From: Planctomycetota bacterium
GTDB lineage: Bacteria > Planctomycetota > UBA8108 > SXIK01
Direction: 5' to 3'
Length of the DNA: 64,000 bases
NCBI GenBank assembly: GCA_965223265.1
Contig: OZ244999.1
Coordinates: forward strand, 2,688,001-2,752,000
Shown here: positions 17,958 through 35,276 of the stretch, in pieces
Position numbering within the stretch: position 1 is the first letter of the stretch
How the letters are laid out: every line of letters starts with the position of its first letter
The notes under the pieces: generated by a model
Databases searched by the model: none
What the model was told of the DNA's origin: nothing
The model's input: only the letters and a program-made list of their open reading frames with translations
Made by a program: the position numbers and the translations under genes

Positions 17958-19265
17958 ATGAAACCAGCGCACGACATCCAGAAGCAGTTTCCACAAGCCG
18001 ACCGTGCCATGATCGAGTGGCTCGCCGCCAAGGAAGAGAAACAGAAACGGCTCTCGCGCCGGCGGTTTCTCGGTGCTGCAGCTGCCGGCCTCGGTGTCGT
18101 CGGACTTCTCGACACCATGCGCCGCGTTGAGGCTGATCAGCACAGCCGCGCACTCATTTCTCGTAACGAATCGATCAAGATCACCAAAGTCGAGAGCTTC
18201 GTGCTCAAGAGCAGCTGGGTGTTCGTCAAGATCTCGACCAACGTCGGGCTCGTCGGTTGGGGCGAGATGCTCAAGGACCGTAGTCTGACCTGCGCGACCG
18301 GACTGAAACAAGTCGAGCCGTATCTCCTGGGCAAGGACCCTCGCCGCGTCGTGCATCACTGGCAGGCGATCTACCGCCATGCTTTCTACCGCGGTGGACC
18401 GGTGCTGACGGCAGTCCTCAGCGGTATCGATCAAGCACTCTGGGACATCAAGGGCAAGGCGCTCGGCATGCCGGTCTACGAGCTTTTGGGTGGTCCGACG
18501 CGCGACAAGATCCGCGTCTACGGCGGTGAAGGCGACGTGCGCGCCGGACGCGTCAATGCGTGCAAGATCGGCCCGGGTGCCGATGGTCGCAATCCCTACC
18601 GCTATGTCGAGAGTCCGGGGATGGTGAAGAAGGTTGCAGAGCGGTTCCGGTCGCTGCGTGAGGAGTTCGGCGACGACGCCGACATCGGCATCGACTTTCA
18701 CGGTGCCGTGCAGCCGCAGACCGCGATGCTGCTCGTCAAAGCTCTCGAACCGTACCAACCGTTCTTCTACGAAGAGGTGATCCAGTGTCAGAACGTCGAC
18801 GCCATGGCTGAGATCGCCAGCAAGACGCACATTCCCATCGCCACCGGCGAGCGTGTGTTCACAAAGTGGGGCTTTCGCGAAATTCTCGAGAAGAAAGCCG
18901 CGAGTATTCTGCAGCCAGACGTCTGTTATGCCGGCGGCATCACCGAGCTTCGCCTCATCGCCGGCATGGCCGAGTCCTACTATGTGCCATTGGCGCCGCA
19001 CAATCCGCAGGGACCATGCTCACTTGCCGCCAGCTGTCAGATTGCTGCTGCGATTCCGAACTTTCTTATCCAAGAGGGAGGTGCGCGTTCCTACGCCCAT
19101 CTGCTCAAGGTGCCGTTTCAGCAAAAGGATTCTTACCTTCCACTGCCGCAGAAGCCAGGACTCGGCATCGAGATCGATGAAGAGAAGCTGCTGGCCCAGG
19201 TGGGGCCGCCGTCTCAGTATCCCGAGACGTACGATCACGAGGACGGATCGGTGGTGGACTGGTAG
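17958..19265 (+). CDS. dgoD: Galactonate dehydratase-like enzyme (mandelate racemase/enolase superfamily) with Tat-like signal
   Basis: 'HHWQAIYRHAFYRGGPVLTAVLSGIDQALWDIKGKALG.PVYELLGG', 'DFHG', 'EE', 'GER', 'LQPD' and 'APHNP.GP'; 'SRRRFLG' twin-arginine motif. Confidence 0.8.
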   Translation: MKPAHDIQKQFPQADRAMIEWLAAKEEKQKRLSRRRFLGAAAAGLGVVGLLDTMRRVEADQHSRALISRNESIKITKVESFVLKSSWVFVKISTNVGLVGWGEMLKDRSLTCATGLKQVEPYLLGKDPRRVVHHWQAIYRHAFYRGGPVLTAVLSGIDQALWDIKGKALGMPVYELLGGPTRDKIRVYGGEGDVRAGRVNACKIGPGADGRNPYRYVESPGMVKKVAERFRSLREEFGDDADIGIDFHGAVQPQTAMLLVKALEPYQPFFYEEVIQCQNVDAMAEIASKTHIPIATGERVFTKWGFREILEKKAASILQPDVCYAGGITELRLIAGMAESYYVPLAPHNPQGPCSLAASCQIAAAIPNFLIQEGGARSYAHLLKVPFQQKDSYLPLPQKPGLGIEIDEEKLLAQVGPPSQYPETYDHEDGSVVDW

Positions 19266-19274
19266 GCGACCAGT

Positions 19275-22200
19275 ATGACGACACGGCTCTGCCTCCTACG
19301 CTCGAGCGCTGCGATTCTTCTGACGGCGATTGTGCCTGCGTGTTGCCGAACGGTTCATGCCGCACCCGGCGACTTTCCAGAAGTCTTCAACACGCAGGAG
19401 GTGACCGTACCCCTCACCCCAGCGGCAGAAGCGGCGCGGCGCATGCAGGTCCCCGACGGTTTTCGTGTCACAGTCTTCGCCAGCGAACCTGACGTCAGGC
19501 AACCGATCGCTATCACGACGGACGATCGTGGACGACTGTGGGTTTGTGAGAACTACACCTACGCCGAAAGTGCGATCAAGTTCGATGCGCGTTTGCGCGA
19601 CCGCATCGTGATCTTGGAAGACAGCAACCACGACGGCCGCGCCGACCGCCGCACTGTGTTTTGGGACGGCGCCGACAAGCTCACCAGTGTCGCGCTTGGC
19701 TTCGGTGGCGTCTGGGCTTTGTGCGCACCGCACTTACTCTTCATCCCTGACCGCGATGGTGACGACGTTCCCGATGGACCGCCGGTGGTGAAGCTCGACG
19801 GCTGGGACGCTGAGCGTGTGCGTCACAACATCGTCAATGGTCTCCGCTGGGGACCCGATGGCTGGCTCTACGGCCGCCACGGCATCCTGGCGACCTCGCG
19901 TGTTGGAACGCCGGGGGCGTCGAGCTCGCAGCGCGTCGCGATCAACTGCGGCATCTGGCGCTACCACCCGACGCGCGACGTCGTCGAAGCTGTCGCCCAC
20001 GGGACAACGAACCCGTGGGGATTTGACTACGACGATCACGGGCAGATGTTTTTCATCAACACTGTCATTGGTCATCTCTTTCACGTCGTCCCTGGGGCGC
20101 ACTACAAGCGTATGTACGGGGTCGATCTGAATCCACACGTCTATGAGCTGATCGACGCCTGCTCAGATCACTACCATTGGGACACCGGCGAGCGCTGGAG
20201 TGACACTCGCAAGATCGGCGTGACGCCGACGACGTCGGCCGCCGGTGGTGGCCATGCCCACTGCGGCATGATGATCTACCTCGGCGACAACTGGCCGGAG
20301 CGGTACCGTGGTGGCGTGTTCACGGTCAATTTGCATGGCCTGCGCGTCAACAACGATCGACTCGTGCGACGCGCTTCGGGTTACGTCGGTGAGCACGCGC
20401 CGGACTTTCTCAAGACCGACGATCCGTGGTTCCGCGGCGTCGAGCTCGTCTACGGCGCGGACGGCGGTGTGTACATAGCGGACTGGTCGGACGTCGGCGA
20501 GTGCCACGAAAACGACGGCGTGCACCGGACGTCGGGGCGGATCTTCAAGGTCACCTATGGCGATCCCGCACCGCCACCGGGCGAGTCGTTGAACCAACTC
20601 AACACCGTTGAGCTTGCGGACCTACAAACGCATCGAAACGACTGGTTCGTGCGCCGTGCACGGCGTCTGCTTCAGGAGCGCGCCGCGGCGGGCGAAGACC
20701 TGCGTGAAGCGACAAACGCCCTGCGCTCGCTCTTTACCCAGCAGACCGACGTGACGCGGCGACTGCGTGCGCTTTGGGCGCTCAACAGCGTCGGCGCCGC
20801 CGACGAACCGTGGCTCGCCTCGCTTCTAAGTGACGACAATGAACACGTGCGCGTGTGGGCGCTGCGGTTACTCGTCGACGGCGAAGTGATCCCGCGCTGG
20901 CTTCCAGATCGTCTCACGCAGCTCGCGGCGGACGAGCCCTCGGCAATCGTGCGTCTCTTCATCGCTTCGGCGATGCAAAAGCTGCCGCTTGCCGCACGCT
21001 GGCCGATCGCCGAAGCACTTGGCGCACGGCGCGAGGACGCCGCAGATCCGATGATTCCACTCATGCTCTGGTATGGCATCGAGCCTGCGGTACCGGCGGC
21101 GCCGCTGCGCGCGGCACGGTTTGCCGTCAAGTGCCAGCTCGCGACGACGCGGCGGCTGGTCGCTCGGCGTCTCACCGAGGAGATCGAGATGTCACCCGCT
21201 GGCGTCGGAGAGCTGGTCAAAGATCTTCCTCGCATCAACTCACGTGCCTTGCGTCTCGATCTACTGCGCGGCATGAACGCGGCGCTCAAAGGTTGGGGGC
21301 GCGCACCAGCGCCGATCGGCTGGGACACTACCTCTGACGCGCTCGTCAAGGCGGAGGACGCCGAGGTTCGCCGTCTCGTCGGCGAGCTGTCGCTCGTCTT
21401 CGGCGCAGGGCGTGGCGTCGAAGAGTTGCGTCAGCTGGTCGCGAACAATGAGGGTGAGCCCACTGCACGGCGCAGTGCCCTTCGCATCCTGGCGCAAAAT
21501 GCACCGCCGGATTTCGCCCCCGAGCTTCAAAAGCGGCTGGGCGACCGCGTCCTTCAGCTCGAGGCGGTCAGCGGCCTGGCTCGCTTCAACCATCCTGCGA
21601 CCGGTGGGCTTCTCATCGAGCGGTTCGAGAGCTTCGATCCCGACGTGCAGGCCGCCGCCGTGGTGACGCTGGTCGCCCGGCATGACTCGGCGCGCGCGTT
21701 TCTTCAGGCCGTCGACGATGGCGCCATCGAACGCAGCGCGATCACGGCGCTCGCAGCGCGGCAGATCGTGAGCTTCAATGACGCGCAGCTCACCGCGCAG
21801 TTGACGCGGCTGTGGGGCGCCATTCGAAAGTCTCCTGCGGAGAAGCGTGAGCTCATCGCAAGCTACAAGCAGAAGCTAACACCGGAGGAGCTCAGTGGCG
21901 CGAATCTTCGCAGCGGGCGCGCCCTCTATGATCGCACCTGCGCGTCGTGCCACGTGCTCTTCGGTGCTGGACGGCACGTTGGTCCTGATCTCACCGGCGC
22001 GGGCCGGCAGAACCTCGATTACCTGCTCGAGAATATCGTCGACCCGAGCGCCAGCGTGGCGGCGGATTTTCAGGTGTCGGTGCTCACCTTGAACGACGGC
22101 CGCGTACTCAGCGGAGTCGTCCTGCGTCAGGACGAGCGGGCGATCACCGTCCAGGTGCAAACGGAGACGTTGACCTTTCCGAGAGATTCGGTCGTGAGCT

Positions 22201-22316
22201 CCGAGCGGACACCTCAGTCGCTCATGCCGGACGGACTTCTGAACGCTCTGAGCGGCGCTGACGTGCGCGACCTGGTCGGCTACCTCATGTCGCCTCGGCA
22301 GGTCGAGGTGCGGTAG
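19275..22316 (+). CDS. PVC-type heme-binding CxxCH protein (membrane-bound dehydrogenase domain, HEAT repeats, cytochrome c)
   Basis: 'VPDGFRVTVFASEPDVRQPI..DDRGRLWV', 'WGPDGWLYG', 'NPWGFD', 'CASCH...VGPDLTG...LLENIVDPS', 'SLMPDGL'. Confidence 0.9.
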   Translation: MTTRLCLLRSSAAILLTAIVPACCRTVHAAPGDFPEVFNTQEVTVPLTPAAEAARRMQVPDGFRVTVFASEPDVRQPIAITTDDRGRLWVCENYTYAESAIKFDARLRDRIVILEDSNHDGRADRRTVFWDGADKLTSVALGFGGVWALCAPHLLFIPDRDGDDVPDGPPVVKLDGWDAERVRHNIVNGLRWGPDGWLYGRHGILATSRVGTPGASSSQRVAINCGIWRYHPTRDVVEAVAHGTTNPWGFDYDDHGQMFFINTVIGHLFHVVPGAHYKRMYGVDLNPHVYELIDACSDHYHWDTGERWSDTRKIGVTPTTSAAGGGHAHCGMMIYLGDNWPERYRGGVFTVNLHGLRVNNDRLVRRASGYVGEHAPDFLKTDDPWFRGVELVYGADGGVYIADWSDVGECHENDGVHRTSGRIFKVTYGDPAPPPGESLNQLNTVELADLQTHRNDWFVRRARRLLQERAAAGEDLREATNALRSLFTQQTDVTRRLRALWALNSVGAADEPWLASLLSDDNEHVRVWALRLLVDGEVIPRWLPDRLTQLAADEPSAIVRLFIASAMQKLPLAARWPIAEALGARREDAADPMIPLMLWYGIEPAVPAAPLRAARFAVKCQLATTRRLVARRLTEEIEMSPAGVGELVKDLPRINSRALRLDLLRGMNAALKGWGRAPAPIGWDTTSDALVKAEDAEVRRLVGELSLVFGAGRGVEELRQLVANNEGEPTARRSALRILAQNAPPDFAPELQKRLGDRVLQLEAVSGLARFNHPATGGLLIERFESFDPDVQAAAVVTLVARHDSARAFLQAVDDGAIERSAITALAARQIVSFNDAQLTAQLTRLWGAIRKSPAEKRELIASYKQKLTPEELSGANLRSGRALYDRTCASCHVLFGAGRHVGPDLTGAGRQNLDYLLENIVDPSASVAADFQVSVLTLNDGRVLSGVVLRQDERAITVQVQTETLTFPRDSVVSSERTPQSLMPDGLLNALSGADVRDLVGYLMSPRQVEVR

Positions 22317-22420
22317 CTAACGTCCCACGCAGTCCGGGAGCATCGGGCAGCCGGCGATCGGCACGCAGCCCCGCGTTTCGTTGTTTTGGGGTCTGCTCAC
22401 GTCGCATCTCATTCCGATCG

Positions 22421-22449
22421 TTGACACGTTTCTACGTCCCTCTTAGCAT
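22421..22449 (+). promoter_or_regulatory. sigma70-type promoter
   Basis: TTGACA (22421-22426), 17-bp spacer, TAGCAT (22444-22449) upstream of the ankyrin gene. Confidence 0.75.
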
Positions 22450-22454
22450 GCGCT

Positions 22455-22626
22455 TGCGTTCGAGGGCGCTGCCGGGTCCGCGGAAAGGCCATGCCACCTC
22501 GTCCACTCTCCGTGATTGCCAACGACCTTCTTTCTGCCTGTCGTGAGCGGACAACGGGCATCATCGGCCGTCAAGGCCGGATCGCGCCGAAGGCGATCCC
22601 TCAGGCGTGATGAGAAAGGAGTTCAA
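22455..22626 (+). ncRNA. Candidate structured 5' leader RNA (no known family recognised)
   Basis: Nested pairings: GAGGG 22462/CCCTC 22598; ATGCC 22491/GGCAT 22557; GTCCACTC 22501/GAGCGGAC 22545; ACGAC 22522/GTCGT 22540. Hairpins CGGCC-GTCAA-GGCCG (22565-22579) and ATCGC..GCGAT (22581-22597). Ends just before SD AAAGGAG. Confidence 0.5.
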
Positions 22627-24243
22627 ATGGATGCGCCGCGTCGTTCCTCTCCGACTCGTACCCTGCCCGGCCAGCCCGAGCTGTCGCGCATTCGCAAGCA
22701 GGCGAAACTCTTGCTCAAGCAGTTTCGTGCCAGCGATGTCGAAGCCACCTCCGAGGTCAGCACCCACTATCACGATGCGGATCCTGGGGCGCTGCGTCTC
22801 TGCGACGCTCAGTTGGTGATCGCACGAGCCTATGGTTTTTCCAGTTGGCCGAAGCTCGCGGCTCATGTTCGATCGAAAGAAGTGACCGCCGATCAGGATC
22901 CTCGCCACTACAAAGATGTATTTCGTGCGATAGAGGAGGGGAACACACAGAAGGTCCTGTCTTTGATCGATGTCGATGAGTCTCTACTCGACGTTGCCGA
23001 TCACAACCAAAGCACGCCGCTCACCCGGGCTTTCGCGTTCAATAACTTAGAGTTGGCAGGTCTGCTGATTGAAAGGGGAGCCAATGCGTTCGCAATGAAC
23101 CATTCGGAGAAGTGGGCTATGCGGTCCGTTGTCGAACGCAGTGGACTGCGTCGCGAGGATCGCGAACGCTTGGTGGAGACAGCCATCGCCGCGCGAGTCT
23201 GGGATGCGGAGATCTTTCATGCGGTGTGGCGCCGCGATCGCAACCTCGCAGAGAAAGTACTGAAGGATGATCCGGCGCAGGTTTCCATCCGCCTTGCCGT
23301 TCTCGATGCAGCGGATGGTTTTTGGAACACGCTTCCCTACTGCGGTCTCAGCCCGCTCCACTATGCCGTCATCGCTGGTGATTTGCGCATGGTTCGTCTT
23401 TTGCTGGAGCGCGGAGCGGAAGTCGATGCTCTCCCACACGCTCACGAAGCTGACTCTCGATTCACTCCCATGTATTACGTTCCCAGTGGGTGCGGCCCGA
23501 TCGCTGAGCGCCTCGTCGAGCACGGTGCGAACGTGAAGCACACGAAGTGGTACCTCACCTCCGGCAGCAAGGCGATGCGAAAAGTCGTGGTTGCACATGG
23601 AGCTGCCGGTACACCGCTGTTGGCGGCGCTGTGTGTCGGTGACTTGAACAAGGCGATCGACATCGCACGTCAAGACCCAACTGTCATTCACGACCGATTG
23701 AAGGAAGCCTATATCGACACGCCACTGCACATGGCAATGAAGGCTGGCTGCGCCGAACTGGTAGAGATCTTGCTTGACCATGGGATGGATGTGGACACTC
23801 CATCATCGCGAGGATACACCCCGCTGACGATGGCCCCTGAGCTCTATTGCTCGCTCGATATGATCAAGCTACTTGTCGAGCGTGGAGCGGATGTTCACGC
23901 CGGCATGTCTGCGAGCGGCTCGGGCTTCTTGAGTCACGACGCCGCGCTCCACAGCGCCATCTGGCAACATGCATACGAACACTGGGACTACGAGGCGGTG
24001 ATCCGCTACTTGGTTCGGATCGGCTCACGTCCCTGTGGCTTGTATCACTGTGCACTCGGCGGGAATCTCGCCGCGGCCAAACTGCTCGTCGAGCTAGGCG
24101 CCGACGTCAATGAAACCGACGACAAGGGGCGCACAGCGTTGGACTACTGCACTGGCGCCGCGGCGGAACACGAGCACCCAGACATCGCGGAGTTCCTACG
24201 GCAACACGGCGGCAGGCACGCGGAGGAGCTCGTAGGACCCTAA
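22627..24243 (+). CDS. Ankyrin repeat protein with N-terminal 'RKQAK...AQ.VIAR.YGF.SW' helical domain
   Basis: SD AAAGGAG then ATG 22627; ankyrin repeats 'TPLTRA', 'SPLHYAV..GD..MVRLLLERGAEVD', 'TPLHMA' and 'G.TALD'. Confidence 0.85.
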   Translation: MDAPRRSSPTRTLPGQPELSRIRKQAKLLLKQFRASDVEATSEVSTHYHDADPGALRLCDAQLVIARAYGFSSWPKLAAHVRSKEVTADQDPRHYKDVFRAIEEGNTQKVLSLIDVDESLLDVADHNQSTPLTRAFAFNNLELAGLLIERGANAFAMNHSEKWAMRSVVERSGLRREDRERLVETAIAARVWDAEIFHAVWRRDRNLAEKVLKDDPAQVSIRLAVLDAADGFWNTLPYCGLSPLHYAVIAGDLRMVRLLLERGAEVDALPHAHEADSRFTPMYYVPSGCGPIAERLVEHGANVKHTKWYLTSGSKAMRKVVVAHGAAGTPLLAALCVGDLNKAIDIARQDPTVIHDRLKEAYIDTPLHMAMKAGCAELVEILLDHGMDVDTPSSRGYTPLTMAPELYCSLDMIKLLVERGADVHAGMSASGSGFLSHDAALHSAIWQHAYEHWDYEAVIRYLVRIGSRPCGLYHCALGGNLAAAKLLVELGADVNETDDKGRTALDYCTGAAAEHEHPDIAEFLRQHGGRHAEELVGP

Positions 24244-24399
24244 CGTTCGTGGCCGATTCTTAGATCCATTCACTTGCTTGGTTGGGCACTCTGTTTGACT
24301 CAGAACTAGGGTGTCGCTCGCGACTACTTCTCAATGAAGAACGGTGGGACCTCGCGGTTACGTCGAGTTTTTGCTTACAATCGGCGACTGCAGCGCGTC

Positions 24400-24474
24400 G
24401 AGAAAGGTGCATTTGAGGACGGTGAGTTCGAGGACGGTGGGTTTGAGAAAGGCGAGTTTGAGGACGAGGCTTCT
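24400..24474 (+). repeat. Five imperfect 15-bp tandem repeats
   Basis: GAGAAAGGTGCATTT, GAGGACGGTGAGTTC, GAGGACGGTGGGTTT, GAGAAAGGCGAGTTT, GAGGACGAGGCTTCT; they lie in ORF 24334-24585 as E(K/D)GxF. Confidence 0.7.
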
Positions 24475-24562
24475 GCGGACGGGATTCTCAGTGAGGCGAT
24501 GCTCATTAGGGGTTACGCGTTTTGGAAAGAGTCGATCGTGACTGAGAGCGAGGCCCATCGAA

Positions 24563-25063
24563 TTGCGAGACGTCGTAGAGAATAGCAACAGCAAGAGCGA
24601 GAGTACTTTCCGGGTCATCGGCGCGGCGCTGAGGGACTACGTCCAACGGTGTGCGCCTTGCCTCCGTAGACTCTCTGCGACCGAAGCCGTGGCTCCGCGC
24701 GGCGAGGGCAAGTGGACGAAGATTGAAATCCTGGGCCACCTCGTTGACTCCGCGGCGAACAATCACCACCGATTTGTCCGCGTGCAAGAGTCATCCAGCG
24801 AGTTCGCGTTTCCTGGATACGCACAAGATCAGTGGGTCAGCACACAGGGCTACGCAGAGGCTGACTGGAATTCAGTCGTTTCGCTTTGGGAGCGGTACAA
24901 TCTACACCTGGCAACTGTCATTGACCGGATCCCGTCCGAGCACGCCGAGACTCCCTGCAGGATTGGGGATGAGCCTCCCCAATCACTCGCCGACCTGGCC
25001 CGAGACTATGTCGACCATGCGTGCCATCACATCGAGCAGGTCGTTGACGTTGGCGATTCTTAA
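24563..25063 (+). CDS. DinB family protein
   Basis: 'GKWTKIEILGHLVDSAANNHHRFVR...PGYAQDQWV...W..YN.HL...DYVDH..HH'; start uncertain. Confidence 0.85.
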   Translation: MRDVVENSNSKSESTFRVIGAALRDYVQRCAPCLRRLSATEAVAPRGEGKWTKIEILGHLVDSAANNHHRFVRVQESSSEFAFPGYAQDQWVSTQGYAEADWNSVVSLWERYNLHLATVIDRIPSEHAETPCRIGDEPPQSLADLARDYVDHACHHIEQVVDVGDS

Positions 25064-25948: not shown

Positions 25949-27628
25949 TCACCACTCGAAGTAATCGCGCAGATCCGGCCACTGCTTCTCCATGAACACG
26001 AGCACCGACATGCCGAAGTAGAAAGCTGCGCAGGCTATCACACCCAGGCGGCTGTACCAACGTGGCCTGAGCTCCGGCGGCAGGAACTTCACGTTAATGC
26101 GCAGGAGGGCGACAGCGGTCACGGCGAGCGCGACGTTGTTGATGTTGGCGATGAGGATCACCATGAGCTTGGGCGATCCGTGCGTCGTGAAGTACCAGGC
26201 GCACAGGTACGACCAGGCGACGTAGGCGAAGAGGATGCCGTAGTAAAGGCGCTTGACGTGCCTGGGATTCATGCGCTCGCGCACGAAGCGGCTGCCGGAC
26301 CATGAGATGTCAGTCCAGCGGCGACTGAAGCCGTCGACGATCGACATCTGACTGGGGAGGAGGACCGCGATGCCGACAAAAAGAGTGACGATCCAGAGAA
26401 GGTTCGCGACGCCGGCCGAGAACTGCGGCGCGTTGCGGATGCCGTCCGCCGTGATCACCGCTTGCGCCCAGTCGAGCCCCGCTTTGTCATGGTAGAGCGG
26501 CGAGAACTGGGCAAACTCGAGCGACAGCAGCGCTGGGAGTGCCATACCGGCGAAACAACCGGGGCCCCAAATCAGCACCTGGTCCCGCACGACGTAGCGC
26601 CACCAGCTCTTCCAGCGTGAGAGGTTTTCTGCGGTCAGTGGGAAGACCTTTCCGAGATGGCTCAGTGTGATCTGGCGTCCGCCGATGGCGCTCGGGATCG
26701 CGCCAACGCGTTGACCCATGCCCCAGCCCTTGTCGCGGACGTAGTTCGAGTACGCCGCATTGGAGAGGCCGCCGCCACCGGCGTAGCCCGCGAAGGCGCC
26801 AAGGACGGCGATGTTGGCGAGCGCGATCACAGGCCATTCGCCGTGCTCGAGCCAGTGCGAGACGGCGTTGACCACCGTTTCGCCGCCTTTGCCATCGCTC
26901 ACGGGAACGTTGCCGAACGCTACGAAACCGCTCAAAACGTTCCACCAGTTGGCCGGGGTGACGAAAAAGATTCCCATCAAGAGGCAAAAACCGAGCACGA
27001 GGAGCACCTTGGTCGTCATCACTGCCTGCAGCGTGTTGTAGACCTTGCCGCCGACGAGCACCGGCAGGACGACGACACCGAGCGTGATGTAAGCGAGGAT
27101 CTGAACCAAGTGCTGGTCCGCCTCACCGGGTGGGTGGCCAAGGTACATCGAGGCGATCAGCGCGGCGCCATGCGTCGACAGCCCTGGGATGAGTGTGCCG
27201 ACGTTGAGGATCATGATCACACCCATCCAAAACGCCGGCCCAGGTCGCATGCGCATGAAGCCGGTCATGATGGGCTCGCCGCAGTAGAGCGCGTAGCGGC
27301 CGGCCTCGAGGTTGAAGAAAACTTGCACGACGATCGCCACCGTTGCAATCCACATGAGGCCGCCACCGTAGCGCGCGGTGATCTCAGGGCCGAAGAGCCA
27401 CTCGCCACCGCCAATCTGAATGCCGCACATGACGATGCCAGGTCCAATCAGCGCCGCCCACTTCTTCCAAGTCGATCGCGCTGTCGCCGCGTCCGGCGCC
27501 GCCTCGGTCGCGGGAAGATCCTCGACGGTCCAAGGCGGCAGTTGTGTGGGCGGCAGAAACGCTGCCGGAGCGCCGTGTTCTCTGCTTTCGTAGTGGTAGT
27601 GCTCCATGGTCGGCCTGTTCCCTGCCAT
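25949..27628 (-). CDS. Nramp-like (APC superfamily) transporter
   Basis: 'IGPGIVMCGIQIGGGEWLFGP', 'N.EAGRYALYCGE' and 'YSNYVRDKGWGMG'; many TM helices. Start 27628 or 27607. Confidence 0.75.
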   Translation of the reverse strand: MAGNRPTMEHYHYESREHGAPAAFLPPTQLPPWTVEDLPATEAAPDAATARSTWKKWAALIGPGIVMCGIQIGGGEWLFGPEITARYGGGLMWIATVAIVVQVFFNLEAGRYALYCGEPIMTGFMRMRPGPAFWMGVIMILNVGTLIPGLSTHGAALIASMYLGHPPGEADQHLVQILAYITLGVVVLPVLVGGKVYNTLQAVMTTKVLLVLGFCLLMGIFFVTPANWWNVLSGFVAFGNVPVSDGKGGETVVNAVSHWLEHGEWPVIALANIAVLGAFAGYAGGGGLSNAAYSNYVRDKGWGMGQRVGAIPSAIGGRQITLSHLGKVFPLTAENLSRWKSWWRYVVRDQVLIWGPGCFAGMALPALLSLEFAQFSPLYHDKAGLDWAQAVITADGIRNAPQFSAGVANLLWIVTLFVGIAVLLPSQMSIVDGFSRRWTDISWSGSRFVRERMNPRHVKRLYYGILFAYVAWSYLCAWYFTTHGSPKLMVILIANINNVALAVTAVALLRINVKFLPPELRPRWYSRLGVIACAAFYFGMSVLVFMEKQWPDLRDYFEW

Positions 27629-27862
27629 GATCTCAAAATCGAGCCGGAGCGCGAACGGGCGCGCCGCGAGGACGAGATCGTCGCTGATTGTCTTCGGACG
27701 GTCAACTTGATTCGAGTAAGGTGTCAACTCGCAGAAGGAGTCTTCACCGCAGAGGTCGCAGCAGCGCGCAGCGAAGAGACAATCGGAGTTCTCTTCTTGC
27801 TGTCGTGGAGAAGCGCCGCCGAGTGACGTACAATTCGAAGGACCATTGCGGAGGCCCACAAC

Positions 27863-31818: not shown

Positions 31819-32072
31819 TCCGACCTCCGTACACGTGCCGAGAACAACAGTCTACATTTGCATTCACCTCTTTTGTCGACTGGGCTGCGAGGCGTTGTGA
31901 ACCCACGTGCCAACTTGGCCGGTAATCTCCGTGGATGTGCGGATTGCGCGTCCGTGATGAAGCTGCGGCGAGCCTTCACGCGACGCAGTTCGATTCCTAA
32001 CGGAGTCTTGGGGCTGCGCCGATGTCGGCACGACGCTGCAGTGCCGTACCGAGTTCGCGAACGCTCCTCACT

Positions 32073-33854
32073 TCATTGACACGTCGTGCGCTCACACCCA
32101 AGACTCGCTCCAGGTTCGGGGTCCGCGCCGCAGTTTGGATGCGGCGCTGGTGGGACCTCGCTGCCAGCGAGGAAAAGAAAGTTGAAGATGAAGACGGCGT
32201 CGGCGATATCGCTCGAAGCATCGTCGTTGGCATTGCATGCCTCGACGCAAGAGGGTAGCTCGGAACCGGCGACGAACAGTGCGTTGAGGTGAAAGATGCC
32301 GTCGGAGATGTCGAGGAAGAGGTCGCCGTTGCAGTCGCCACGGAGGAACGCCGAGTTGTCTTTCTGGTTGCCGAAATTGATACCTTCGACGATTTCTCCG
32401 GATGCGAGTTTGACGACATGGGCACCACTCGTTGGTGCCTGCGGCGTCGGAAACGTCTGCCGAAAGCCATCAGGGGCGACTTCGCGGACGGTGTGAGTCC
32501 CAGGCTGAACGTTCAACCAGTAAAGTCCAGTTTCGTCGAAAGCGGTGACTGGGCTGTCGTCCATGGTGATGGTCAACGGCTCGCCGGCGTCGAGGATTCC
32601 ATTGTCGTTGAAGTCGAGAAAGATGGTGACGCCGGCGAGGCCAGGCTCGTTCTGATCACGCCGGCCGTTACCGTTACGATCGAGCCACTTGACGCCGTGA
32701 ACGCTTGCGGGCTGGACTTCGTGGTTGCCAAAGTTGAGCCCCTCGACGACGACGCCCGAGGCAAGAACGACGCTATGAAAACCATTCACTGGGAACGTCT
32801 GTGCGAAGCCGTCGGGAACAACTTCGCGTATGGTGTAGGTCCCGGGCTGCGCTTCGAGCCAGTAGAGTCCCGACTCGTCGAACTGAGTGTTGGGATTGTC
32901 GGTCATGGAGACGGCCGATGGTTCGGCAGCGTCGAGGAAGCCGTTGTCGTTGAGGTCGAGGTAGATGGTGACGCCGGCCAGGCCAGGCTCGTTCTGATCA
33001 CGCCGACCGTTACCGTCGCGGTCGAGCCACTTGACGCCGTGGACGCTTGCGGGCTGGACCTCGTGGTTGCCAAAGTCGAGCCCCTCGACGACGACGCCGG
33101 AGGCAAGAACGACGCTATGAAAACCATTTGCCGGGAACGTCTGTATAAAGCCGTTGGGAACAACCTCGCGGATGGTGTAGGCTCCGGGCTGCGCTTCGAG
33201 CCAATAGAGACCGGTCTCGTCGAACTGAGTGTTGGGATTGTCGGTCATGGAGACGGCCGATGGTTCGGCAGCGTCGAGGAAGCCGTTGTCGTTGAGGTCG
33301 AGGTAGATGGTGACGCCAGCCAGGCCAGGCTCGTTCTGATCACGCTGGGCGTTTCCGTTACGGTCAAGCCACTTGACGCCGTGAACACTGGCCGGTTCGA
33401 TCTTCTGAAGTCCGAAGTTGATACCCCGAACGTTCGTTCCCGCACTGACTTTGATAAGATGGGCGCCACCGTTACTGGTCGGAAATGTTTGACTGAACCC
33501 GTCAGGAACGATTTCCCGCACGACGAAAGTTCCTGGCCCGGTAACGAACTGAAAGATTCCAGTTTCGTCAACGCCGGTCGACGGATCGTCGGACAAGCTG
33601 TTGATGGCCGGCTCGCCTCGGTCGAGAAAGCCGTTCTCGTTCAGATCGAGGTAGACGACGACGCCCGCAAGGCCTGGTTCATTCGCGTCACGATTTCCGT
33701 CACCGTTGGCGTCCGACCACACGGAGCCGCGTATGCTTTCACTCGGAAGTCCGCCGAGCAAGACTCGTCGATCCTGAACGGGGTGTCGTGACACCATCGG
33801 TTCGAAGAATATACAGACCAGCGTGATCGACAGAACGAGCGCCGTGCGGTTCAT
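32073..33854 (-). CDS. Secreted protein with four SdrD B-like (collagen-binding B-type) domains and C-terminal dockerin-like domain
   Basis: Repeats 'ASVHGVKWLDRNGNG.RDQNEPGLAGVTIYLDLNDNG.LD..EP...PG.YTIREVVP.GF.QTFP...FGN'; C-terminal 'FLRGDCNGD..LDISDG...C..ACNANDD..DIAD...CGADP'; RBS AGGAGG. Confidence 0.85.
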   Translation of the reverse strand: MNRTALVLSITLVCIFFEPMVSRHPVQDRRVLLGGLPSESIRGSVWSDANGDGNRDANEPGLAGVVVYLDLNENGFLDRGEPAINSLSDDPSTGVDETGIFQFVTGPGTFVVREIVPDGFSQTFPTSNGGAHLIKVSAGTNVRGINFGLQKIEPASVHGVKWLDRNGNAQRDQNEPGLAGVTIYLDLNDNGFLDAAEPSAVSMTDNPNTQFDETGLYWLEAQPGAYTIREVVPNGFIQTFPANGFHSVVLASGVVVEGLDFGNHEVQPASVHGVKWLDRDGNGRRDQNEPGLAGVTIYLDLNDNGFLDAAEPSAVSMTDNPNTQFDESGLYWLEAQPGTYTIREVVPDGFAQTFPVNGFHSVVLASGVVVEGLNFGNHEVQPASVHGVKWLDRNGNGRRDQNEPGLAGVTIFLDFNDNGILDAGEPLTITMDDSPVTAFDETGLYWLNVQPGTHTVREVAPDGFRQTFPTPQAPTSGAHVVKLASGEIVEGINFGNQKDNSAFLRGDCNGDLFLDISDGIFHLNALFVAGSELPSCVEACNANDDASSDIADAVFIFNFLFLAGSEVPPAPHPNCGADPEPGASLGCERTTCQ

Positions 33855-34172
33855 GATGCACCTCCTGATCGCACGCGCTCGGAGCGGCGCGAACAGGGGA
33901 GGTGTTCACACCGTGCCTTGGAACGTCCGACCTCGATCCCTAAAATGCCTCGCCACCCTAACGGACGACGATGCCTCTTTTTCCCTACGTTACGCCCCTA
34001 ATATATCAACCCCGGGAGTTTTCGCCTCGTCAATTGTAGCTGATCGGATGTCGTGACGCGGAGCGGCAGGCACCCAAAGTAGCAGACACACTCCTTGTGT
34101 TCTTTTGGCTGCGAAGCGCAGAGCGCGCCCGCTACTTCGAACGAAGCTTCGCGGGTAGCGAAAAGTGTGCCT

Positions 34173-35276
34173 CTAATCCAGGGACGCCGCTTGCGGATCC
34201 CATATGGTCGCGGCGATCGTGCGGATCGGCTCGCCTTCGGTGTGGTAGTAGTACACCGTGACGCACTTTCCGTCGGGGCGCTCGACCGTGCGCGGATAGC
34301 CGATATCCCAGCTGCCACCATCGCGACGCAGGACGATTTCGTCGCCCCAGGTTTGACCTTCGTCCTGCGACAGGCGTGCGCGCAGGCCGTACGGGGCGCG
34401 GCGCCAACCGTAAGTCATCGCAAGGGCGCCACTCTTCAGACGCGTCAGCGTCGCAGGATTGCCGGCATTGTCGATCCGCGGCCTTTCCAAGAGATACCAC
34501 GAGCGGCCGTCGTCGGGTGAGACAAACGCCTCGAGCCACCATCGCCTCTCACCGTCGAACACGCCGCCGCGCCGAATCATGCTCAGATAACCGTCGCCCC
34601 GCAGCCGCACCGTCGCCGGCATGATGGCGTAACCGTATCTGGCAGGAGGCTGCTCGCCGATCCAGCCAACGAGATTCCAGGTGCGCCCTCCATCGGTCGT
34701 GCGCATGCACAATGGCTGACCCTCCTTGCCGCCTTCCTTCTGCGCCGCCACAAATGCCGTCACGCGGTCGGCGCCTTCGACGATGTAGTCTGTACGGCAG
34801 AGCAGGCCGGGACGTCCGAAGGTTGGCAAGCTATAGGGTCCCTCCCACGTCTTGCAGCGGTCGTGCGAATAGTAGAGAGCGCCGCCGTTGAATCTCAACG
34901 CGAGATCGGACGCGCTGAAATCTATGCCGTTGCGTAAGGTGTTCGGCGCGTCCGCGGAGTTGGGACTGCCGGCGTTGCTCGCCGTCTCCAGCGTCCACGT
35001 CTCGCCGCCGTCGAGACTACGCGCCTGCCGCTTTTCCGACGGACGATCACGGTCGATATCATGTCCGCCGGTGGGGTTTTTCTTGTAGTGGCCGAGCGTG
35101 AATCCGACGACGATTTCGTTCTCCCACGACCAAATGCCGTAGTTGGCAGGCCAGCCGGCAAACCGACCGGACTCCGTGCAGACGTCGACGTGGCGCGTCG
35201 GTGTTGCCGTCGTTTGATTGTGAGCTGCGAACGTGATGGCCGCTGCGACGGTAACGATCACGGATGTGCGAAGCAT
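34173..35276 (-). CDS. Sialidase-family (BNR/Asp-box) secreted protein
   Basis: SD AAGGAG then MLRTSVIV signal peptide; Asp boxes 'SLDGGETW', 'SHDRCKTW', 'TTDGGRTW', 'SPDDGRSW', 'SQDEGQTW'; 'DIGYPRTV.RPDG..VTVYY'. Confidence 0.85.
   Translation of the reverse strand: MLRTSVIVTVAAAITFAAHNQTTATPTRHVDVCTESGRFAGWPANYGIWSWENEIVVGFTLGHYKKNPTGGHDIDRDRPSEKRQARSLDGGETWTLETASNAGSPNSADAPNTLRNGIDFSASDLALRFNGGALYYSHDRCKTWEGPYSLPTFGRPGLLCRTDYIVEGADRVTAFVAAQKEGGKEGQPLCMRTTDGGRTWNLVGWIGEQPPARYGYAIMPATVRLRGDGYLSMIRRGGVFDGERRWWLEAFVSPDDGRSWYLLERPRIDNAGNPATLTRLKSGALAMTYGWRRAPYGLRARLSQDEGQTWGDEIVLRRDGGSWDIGYPRTVERPDGKCVTVYYYHTEGEPIRTIAATIWDPQAASLD

Follow-up and report, generated by a model that had tools for sequence, protein, structure and literature searches.

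Several translational riboswitches act through an aptamer pseudoknot that includes or controls the Shine-Dalgarno (SD) sequence; SAM-II/SAM-V, preQ1-II, guanidine-III and ZTP are of this kind. In the autoregulatory leaders of ribosomal-protein and similar operons, the encoded protein binds the leader of its own mRNA and traps the SD. Other RNA motifs, such as yjdF and raiA, are orphans tied to a single gene family. Here, we describe a leader RNA found in a 64,000-nucleotide stretch of a Planctomycetota genome (contig OZ244999.1; hereafter the window), in front of a gene that encodes an N-terminal module followed by ankyrin repeats. This leader is a member of a widespread, apparently undescribed family of structured RNAs of the 5' untranslated region (5' UTR), about 135-190 nt in length. 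A preliminary description of this locus had as its central proposal that a distinctive N-terminal module is coupled to a new structured leader RNA, and the comparison of relatives strongly supports it. We consider it very probable that the element is a real, selected, cis-acting structured RNA that acts on translation initiation. Our preferred interpretation, a two-state translational switch of the riboswitch type with a small ligand as the effector, is given a probability of roughly 0.4 as a whole statement.

Like the translational riboswitches named above, the leader lies in a 5' UTR, contains crossing helices, has a core conserved across phyla, holds the SD in a conserved helix and has no terminator platform. 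Unlike these riboswitches, it matches no Rfam model, and the genes that it would control are not those of transport or metabolism but encode repeat or interaction proteins that have an N-terminal module in common. With the ribosomal-protein leaders it has in common that it is dedicated to one protein family, that it would act at translation initiation and that its conserved structure covaries; it differs from them in that the protein is not a known RNA binder, in that many paralogues per genome each have their own leader, and in that the element is spread over several phyla with a near-invariant core. In contrast with the ribosomal-protein leaders, we know of no cellular RNA that this leader could mimic. 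Finally, like yjdF and raiA, it is a conserved, complex RNA that occurs almost exclusively in front of one gene family, but it has no sequence or structure relation to either (no Rfam match) and is tied to an N-terminal domain common to different protein architectures.

The preliminary description had made its proposal depend on upstream conservation among homologues, and a shared leader element was indeed found. A covariance model built from 99 other leaders, with the window left out (model R2), matched the window leader over model positions 1-150 of 150 (70.6 bits, E 1.3e-18), and this was the sole match in the 64 kb. In the 9.18-Mb genome it was the one full-length significant copy (E 1.4e-18), next to two marginal matches (E 0.29 and 0.9). 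The match reaches the ATG at 22627, and the open reading frame (ORF) behind it begins with the N-terminal module. The window leader alone, used as the query of an nhmmer search, matched the upstream regions of relatives down to E 2.2e-8, and the blastn and nhmmer matches to these regions lay at a constant distance from the start codon. As the preliminary description had expected, no known Rfam family was recognised: cmscan of window positions 22000-23000 with Rfam 15 at E≤10 gave only three chance-level matches (14-17 bits, compared with gathering thresholds of 37-50), and the 4227 models of Rfam 15 gave nothing over the element in eight related loci at E≤1. No RNA motif before ankyrin genes was found described in the literature, where an entry in the supplements of large motif-discovery papers is possible. 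The word 'ankyrin' is absent from the main text of four such papers (PMC5737381, PMC6429828, PMC8632094 and PMC11109978), and the main text of the last one has no mention of Acidobacteri-, Planctomyc- or Gemmat-.

The family was delimited through the module. When the first 90 residues were used as the query, 66 of 293 candidate proteins matched at E≤1e-3, all of them ankyrin proteins with a well-conserved N-terminal module. One genome per prokaryotic species was scanned with A1, an alignment of 20 modules; at least 599 stretches matched the pattern, at least 584 were confirmed, and the best 80 of these were analysed. The full element was present directly upstream in 78 of these 80 loci, the other two being a locus cut by a contig end (L021) and a locus without the element (L010). 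In metagenomes, a scan with a second, divergent module subfamily (A4) gave at least 356 confirmed loci, and the full element preceded 76 of the best 80; two of the remaining loci were cut by a contig end and two had too little upstream sequence to be assessed. By their titles, the best 80 genome loci come from Acidobacteriota (Bryobacterales, Vicinamibacterales, Terriglobia, Blastocatellia), Planctomycetota, Gemmatimonadaceae and Latescibacterota, together with one Spirochaetia metagenome-assembled genome (MAG) and one 1.8-kb contig binned as Methanomicrobiales; the family is also found in soil metagenomes. Of the species genomes sampled from two major soil phyla, roughly one in ten has the element, and single genomes have as many as seven copies. 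There were 4 matches in G122 and 4-7 in all but one of the five genomes G203-G207, each before a different module paralogue.

Two of these occurrences call for a remark. The 1.8-kb contig of the Methanomicrobiales MAG (L021) carries a leader and a module-ankyrin gene of bacterial type, and mis-binning is likelier than an archaeal member. Among viral contigs, an IMG/VR contig (L220, 9036-9178, plus strand) carries the full RNA and a module ORF, and another (L219, 183-272, minus strand) carries the 5' half only (50 bits), with an unrelated ORF behind it. A phage link is not indicated, because these two pattern matches, the sole ones on viral contigs, both sit at contig ends.

Seven helices are supported by comparison of the members (Table 1). 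In the 99 leaders aligned without the window (cmsearch matches, alignment A3), 92.5% of 3547 cells were paired, compared with 34-50% when the partners were slid; 30 of 37 pairs showed compensatory changes, and none of 500 shuffles reached the observed values. A MAFFT alignment of 79 leaders including the window gave similar figures, with 91.3% of cells paired (33-46% with slid partners) and compensatory changes in 21 of the 37 pairs. Examples from the 99 leaders are single pairs of helix B (AU 50, CG 37, GC 7), helix E (GC 53, AU 43) and helix F (CG 42, UA 38). Compensatory changes were also observed in helix C in divergent members (GUCUGC/GCAGAC, GUCCAC/GUGGAC and AUCCGC/GCGGAU).

These observations bear on the explanation that no functional RNA is involved, and that the conservation reflects operator or promoter signals at the DNA level, an upstream coding segment that escaped annotation, or pairing that arises by chance where the sequence is rich in G+C. 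A promoter-like box does adjoin the element, and its folding energy is no better than that of shuffled sequences (see below), as this explanation would have it. However, the compensatory double changes and the low pairing of the slid controls argue against it, as do the arrangement of the conserved blocks, between which lie a spacer of variable length and a hairpin that some members lack, the short and unconserved open frame that precedes the start, and the strand specificity of the match, which runs exactly to the start codon. We consider this explanation highly improbable. Its coding variant, an upstream ORF, was set aside on covariation and variable spacers, with no formal codon statistics.

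Folding of single sequences gave a different picture from that of the comparison. The minimum free energy (MFE) of the window leader was -66.7 kcal/mol, compared with -65.2 +/- 4.7 for 200 dinucleotide shuffles (z -0.32); 75 of the 200 shuffles folded as well, and a slightly longer stretch gave z -0.35. The preliminary description had set beforehand, as a refuting outcome, an energy no better than that of dinucleotide shuffles, and this is the outcome for the window leader; its statement that almost the whole leader can pair carries little information because G+C content alone gives that much pairing. The strings that it had named were all found in the sequence (GAGGG at 22462, CCCTC at 22598, CGGCC-GTCAA-GGCCG at 22565-22579 and GGATCGC..GCGATCC at 22579-22599), but most of the helices drawn from them differ from those that covary in relatives. 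Instead of a closing helix between GAGGG and CCCTC 22598, the family pairs GAGG 22462-22465 with CCUC 22497-22500; instead of an arm with the partner GTCCAC at 22502, it pairs GCGGAC 22547-22552 with GUCCGC 22476-22481. The hairpins of 22565-22599, which had been named among the paired elements, are located at the variable insertion point of the family, and the alternative fold proposed through the last of them is not what the family conserves.

Table 1. Features of the leader and of the ankyrin gene, in window coordinates.
Feature	Coordinates	Strand	Basis and remarks
-35-like hexamer TTGACA	22421..22426	+	Consensus scan; -35 at this place not kept in relatives
-10-like hexamer TAGCAT	22444..22449	+	Consensus scan; aligns with the family TAnnnT box
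Leader-RNA family match, full length	22442..22630	+	Model R2; RNA proper about 22455-22626
Helix A hairpin, GCG 22456-58 / CGC 22467-69	22456..22469	+	Consensus GGCGC/GCGCC; 92.5% of cells paired, 2/4 pairs compensatory
Helix B, CGAGG 22461-65 / CCUCG 22497-501	22461..22501	+	Consensus UCAGG/CCUGA; crosses helix A; 5/5 pairs compensatory
Helix C, long-range, GUCCGC 22476-81 / GCGGAC 22547-52	22476..22552	+	Crosses B, D and F; nearly invariant
Helix E hairpin, GGC-CAU-GCC	22487..22495	+	Consensus GGRC-NNN-GYCC; 99% of cells paired
Helix F, anti-SD 22524-35 / SD strand 22613-24	22524..22624	+	Family helices 5 and 6; 10/10 counted pairs compensatory; 90% and 86% of cells paired
Helix D, GCCUG 22536-40 / CGGGC 22555-59	22536..22559	+	Consensus GCCCG/CGGGC; 99% of cells paired, 3/5 pairs compensatory
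Two window-specific hairpins, 22565-79 and 22579-99	22565..22599	+	Insertion in both models (R1, R2); between helix D and SD
Shine-Dalgarno AAGGAG	22616..22621	+	A177, G178 and A179 of the AGGAG core (window-row numbering) invariant or ≥90% conserved
Coding sequence, 538 residues, N-terminal module + ankyrin repeats	22627..24243	+	ATG 22627; Pfam Ank_2
N-terminal four-helix module, coding region (about residues 12-85)	22660..22881	+	Profile A1; AlphaFold2
Ankyrin-repeat region (about residues 92-538)	22900..24240	+	Pfam; AlphaFold2

The order of elements in the family is helix A, helix B, the 5' strand of helix C, helix E, a variable spacer, the 5' strand of helix F, helix D, an optional hairpin and the 3' strand of helix F. 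The 5' strand of helix B sits in the loop of helix A, and the 3' strand of C lies in the loop of helix D. In the family consensus, the invariant GUCCGCGG forms the 5' strand of C, and GAAGG comes next. Helices A to F can all be drawn in the window, where A and E each lack one pair and the 6 pairs of C are bordered by G.A mismatches. Helix F has 12-15 bp in the family and buries the SD up to the start codon; in the window, it is made of 9 contiguous pairs, one mismatch and then 2 pairs. At the insertion point between helix D and the SD, other members have zero or one hairpin. Conservation of 90% or more across phyla is seen at many unpaired positions, and two of the conserved stretches, GGGAAGG and the SD, are purine-rich and contain GGA. 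A pairing of GGGAAGG with the anti-SD was considered and found on inspection to be only weak and G-U-rich.

In 67 of the 79 leaders, a distance of 6-8 nt separates the 3' end of a TAnnnT box from the second G of helix A, and the TAGCAT of the window aligns with this box; the conservation of this -10-like box at a fixed distance indicates that the RNA is part of a 5' UTR. In the window, the promoter-like site TTGACA-N17-TAGCAT agrees with 10 of 12 consensus positions and is the sole one in 21800-24800, where shuffles average 0.6. This site, the good SD and ATG and the leader of roughly 170 nt were all present as previously noted. From the -10-like box, transcription is predicted to start at about 22455-22457.

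The association of the RNA with the module was measured in both directions. Searches that started from the RNA covered 306 genomes, with the window's own genome excluded, and 44 of the 51 matches lay directly before an ORF that begins with the module (module-first ORF); all but one of the misses were weak or partial matches, or were cut by a contig end. First, 14 matches at E≤1e-3 came from 10 of 150 other genomes in the phylum of the window. Twelve of them, those with E≤1.3e-11, were all followed by a module-first ORF, and two weak partial ones were not. Second, in five genomes of other phyla, the module followed 20 of 23 matches, L122 being recognised only via the module-first search; the misses were one strong orphan (L120) and two weak partial matches. 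Third, 150 further genomes of the phylum of G203 gave 14 new matches, of which 12 were followed by the module, one was at a contig end and one was weak, partial and without the module. The orphan (G205:C1:3704252-3704391, minus strand; E 1.3e-11) is followed by a 22-residue ORF, with no module in the 3-kb locus, and may be a true orphan or a remnant. When the search started from the module, the RNA was present at 23 of 27 gene-level places in the five genomes and at 14 of 18 places in the window's phylum, one of these being seen only with filters off. Overall, about one in six module genes have no RNA. Among the module genes without it are L010, L221, L222, L224, L225, L227 and L228, and L226 has a partial match only.

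Behind the module, ankyrin repeats are found in most cases. Exceptions that carry the RNA have a DUF1835 domain (L117), ankyrin repeats with a glyoxalase domain (L121), sub-threshold matches to leucine-rich repeats (LRR; L113) or no Pfam family (L116, L124). In a further one (L091; G073:C19, about 32070-35215), from a genome of the same phylum as the window with 45% G+C, the module is joined to a T2SSF-like segment and a T2SSE ATPase (341 bits), and the RNA scores 80.5 bits. The preliminary description had presented the module as fused to varied C-terminal parts, and ankyrin repeats, DUF1835, a T2SSE-type ATPase or no Pfam family were indeed encountered. The RNA goes with the module and not with the ankyrin repeats, because it also precedes module genes with other C-terminal parts. 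Upstream of the element, no conserved neighbour gene was found, the largest cluster spanning 4 loci.

Ankyrin, LRR and NTF2-fold proteins appear among the immunity proteins of polymorphic toxin systems in PMC3482391. Some C-terminal partners of the module overlap these immunity classes, which is a lead only. No toxin gene adjoins the ankyrin gene of the window.

The window protein had been presented as an ankyrin protein with a distinctive N-terminal domain, and about 85 residues outside any Pfam family do precede its repeats, which match Ank_2 (E 2.6e-34, 118 bits compared with a cut-off of 27.3) and related Ank families. At E≤1e-3, the module family comprised 9510 of 1.84 billion representative proteins (4695 at E≤1e-10); the module is N-terminal in 209 of 216 proteins and doubled in 24. 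The window module (first 86 residues) is 38-59% identical to the other 19 in A1, and its genome has a single module gene. The wording 'small basic helical module' was right as to the helices, four of which are predicted by AlphaFold2 (residues 19-34, 38-47, 58-68 and 74-85), and too strong as to the charge, since the modules carry only a modest net charge (median +2, range -9 to +9, n=240). The mean predicted local distance difference test (pLDDT) score of the isolated module was 81.5; in the full-length model, residues 11-80 scored 90-98 and residues 86-90 form a low-confidence linker. The first ~85 residues matched no Pfam family and no relative among PDB sequences, the fold gave 0 Foldseek matches in the PDB at E≤1e-3, and the neighbours of the module in the ESM Atlas were 'hypothetical protein' at 0.87-0.89, under the level that counts.

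Weak matches to PF20066 (Glyoxalase_8) were obtained from 9 of the 20 modules (best E 5.7e-4, all under the curated cut-off); the two with listed coordinates, those of L121 and L124, fall at profile positions 4-61. It seems, from these matches, that the PF20066 model contains the module as an unrecognised N-terminal domain. The window protein differs from PF20066 proteins in that it has no glyoxalase domain, and its module has no Pfam domain of its own. With the equivalogs of Legionella-type Dot/Icm ankyrin effectors in NCBIfam, the window protein scored 16-58 bits, compared with cut-offs of 450-1400, and only its ankyrin repeats were covered. No close orthologue of the whole protein was found in 60 related genomes, which gave two distant matches only.

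The tight coupling observed in both directions points to autoregulation as one explanation: the module, as carried by the encoded protein and its paralogues, would bind the leader core and stabilise the fold in which the SD is sequestered, in a negative feedback that would make RNA and module a portable cassette. The leader is specific to the gene of the presumed binding protein in 44 of the 51 cases, it is kept with the module whatever the C-terminal part, and up to 6 or 7 paralogues per genome each have their own RNA copy; in addition, the module is discrete, confidently folded, on a flexible linker and nearly always N-terminal. However, the module is only mildly basic and has no sequence or fold similarity to known RNA-binding domains, and some module genes have no RNA. 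Coupling does not by itself require binding either, because a 5' UTR and an N-terminal segment that adjoin each other are inherited together when C-terminal domains are swapped. Moreover, a near-invariant core across phyla, such as the one observed here, is commoner in small-ligand aptamers than in protein-binding leaders. On balance, autoregulation by the module is possible but doubtful.

In the strongest form of this proposal, which we advance only tentatively from the sequences compared, the four-helix module of ~80 residues would be a new RNA-binding domain that recognises its own double-pseudoknot leader, and would form a head joined to many tails in at least four phyla. The tails would be ankyrin, weak LRR-like, DUF1835, glyoxalase, SnoaL-type and secretion ATPase parts; the corresponding idea of a feedback or ribonucleoprotein system common to the whole family, with thousands of members, is likewise rather unlikely.

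The preferred interpretation, a two-state switch governed by a small ligand, can be put as follows. Transcription would start shortly before helix A. The helices fall into set 1 (A, C and E) and set 2 (B, E, D and F), which cross each other. Set 1 would leave the SD single-stranded, and in set 2 the 12-15-bp helix F would bury the SD and everything up to the start codon. An effector that binds the highly conserved, pseudoknotted 5' core would shift the balance between the SD-free and the SD-sequestered fold. The likeliest effector would be a small ligand, which is favoured by the cross-phylum near-invariance and the complexity of the core; the main rival effector is the encoded N-terminal module acting in feedback, which is favoured by the exclusive gene association and which we hold to be a weaker candidate. 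Where the transcript starts, whether the helix sets alternate or coexist as a double pseudoknot, in which direction control runs and what kind of effector acts are all matters of inference.

Several traits of riboswitches were found in silico, namely a conserved structured domain, the position of the -10 box and a predicted platform on the SD. In 68 of the 98 members, the MFE structure had the whole SD paired, and the median probability that the SD is unpaired was 0.07; with the part upstream shuffled, these figures were 29 of 98 and 0.32. In the window, the unpaired probability of the SD was 0.005. The constrained nested energies of the two sets were close, with a median difference of +0.8 kcal/mol, set 2 being lower in 46 of 98 members. 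In the window, they were -58.6 kcal/mol for set 1 and -64.3 for set 2 (MFE -66.7). Among single-sequence MFE structures, different members pick different helix sets.

The following points weigh against a ligand-operated switch. First, the strong RNA matches occur with module-first genes only, and none was found before a transporter or metabolic enzyme gene; the downstream genes encode the module with ankyrin repeats, DUF1835 or T2SSE only, and suggest no ligand. This is not the gene association expected of metabolite riboswitches, and it agrees at least equally well with protein feedback. Second, all seven helices could coexist as a double pseudoknot, the loop lengths being compatible on inspection, and in that case the near-equal energies of the two sets say nothing about switching; the comparison of these energies was made without a shuffled control. 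Third, single-sequence folding was no better than that of shuffles, in the window as in six other members (z -0.03 to -1.62). Fourth, the structure was drawn from the same sequences that were later used for the covariation counts, and the fit of alignment A3 took in helices B, E, D and F but left out A and C; independent covariation events are fewer than the cells counted, because many compensatory changes are common to whole subfamilies. Finally, the position of the transcript start is predicted from the sequence.

Sequestration of the SD, which is the predicted default in most members, would also suit another operator: a global trans-acting RNA-binding protein, a small RNA or temperature could act on the leader, or the leader could be a constitutive damper or stabiliser of this mRNA family. 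The conserved, purine-rich GGGAAGG and SD stretches with their GGA are in keeping with such an operator, as is the lack of a conserved upstream neighbour that would point to a dedicated partner. However, a fold of 150 nt with seven covarying helices and invariant unpaired positions goes far beyond the needs of thermometers or protein-titration sites, and no candidate trans factor emerged; we consider an operator of this kind unlikely. A CsrA-type titration site was set aside, the fold being far too elaborate.

The surroundings of the ankyrin gene in the window were as follows. Directly upstream on the same strand, 310 nt apart, lies a gene for a 1013-residue PVC-type haem-binding CxxCH protein (19275-22316; TIGR02604 395 bits, DUF7133, HEAT repeats and a C-terminal cytochrome c domain), itself preceded by a gene of the mandelate racemase/muconate-lactonising enzyme family whose product has an N-terminus weakly resembling a twin-arginine translocation (TAT) signal (17958-19265, plus strand). 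Just 3' of the ankyrin gene, at about 24390-24480 on the plus strand, imperfect repeats of a GAGTTYGAGGACGG-like unit lie within a short ORF (24334-24585). A DinB_2 family protein is encoded at 24563-25063 (plus strand). The 636-residue ORF at 25949-27859 (minus strand) matches no Pfam family at E≤0.01 and, in such G+C-rich DNA, is only a possible gene.

In conclusion, if the proposed interpretation is true, the leader represents a structured regulatory RNA class that is new and abundant and equals validated riboswitches in complexity; the RNA is short, sharply delimited and ends at the start codon. It is tied to a protein domain that is present in about 9500 representative clusters and that no database names. 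If the module itself proved to act in feedback, the family would provide a new RNA-binding domain and a modular RNA-protein cassette. If a small ligand is the effector, an orphan riboswitch class would be added, and with it a clue to what bacterial ankyrin proteins respond to.

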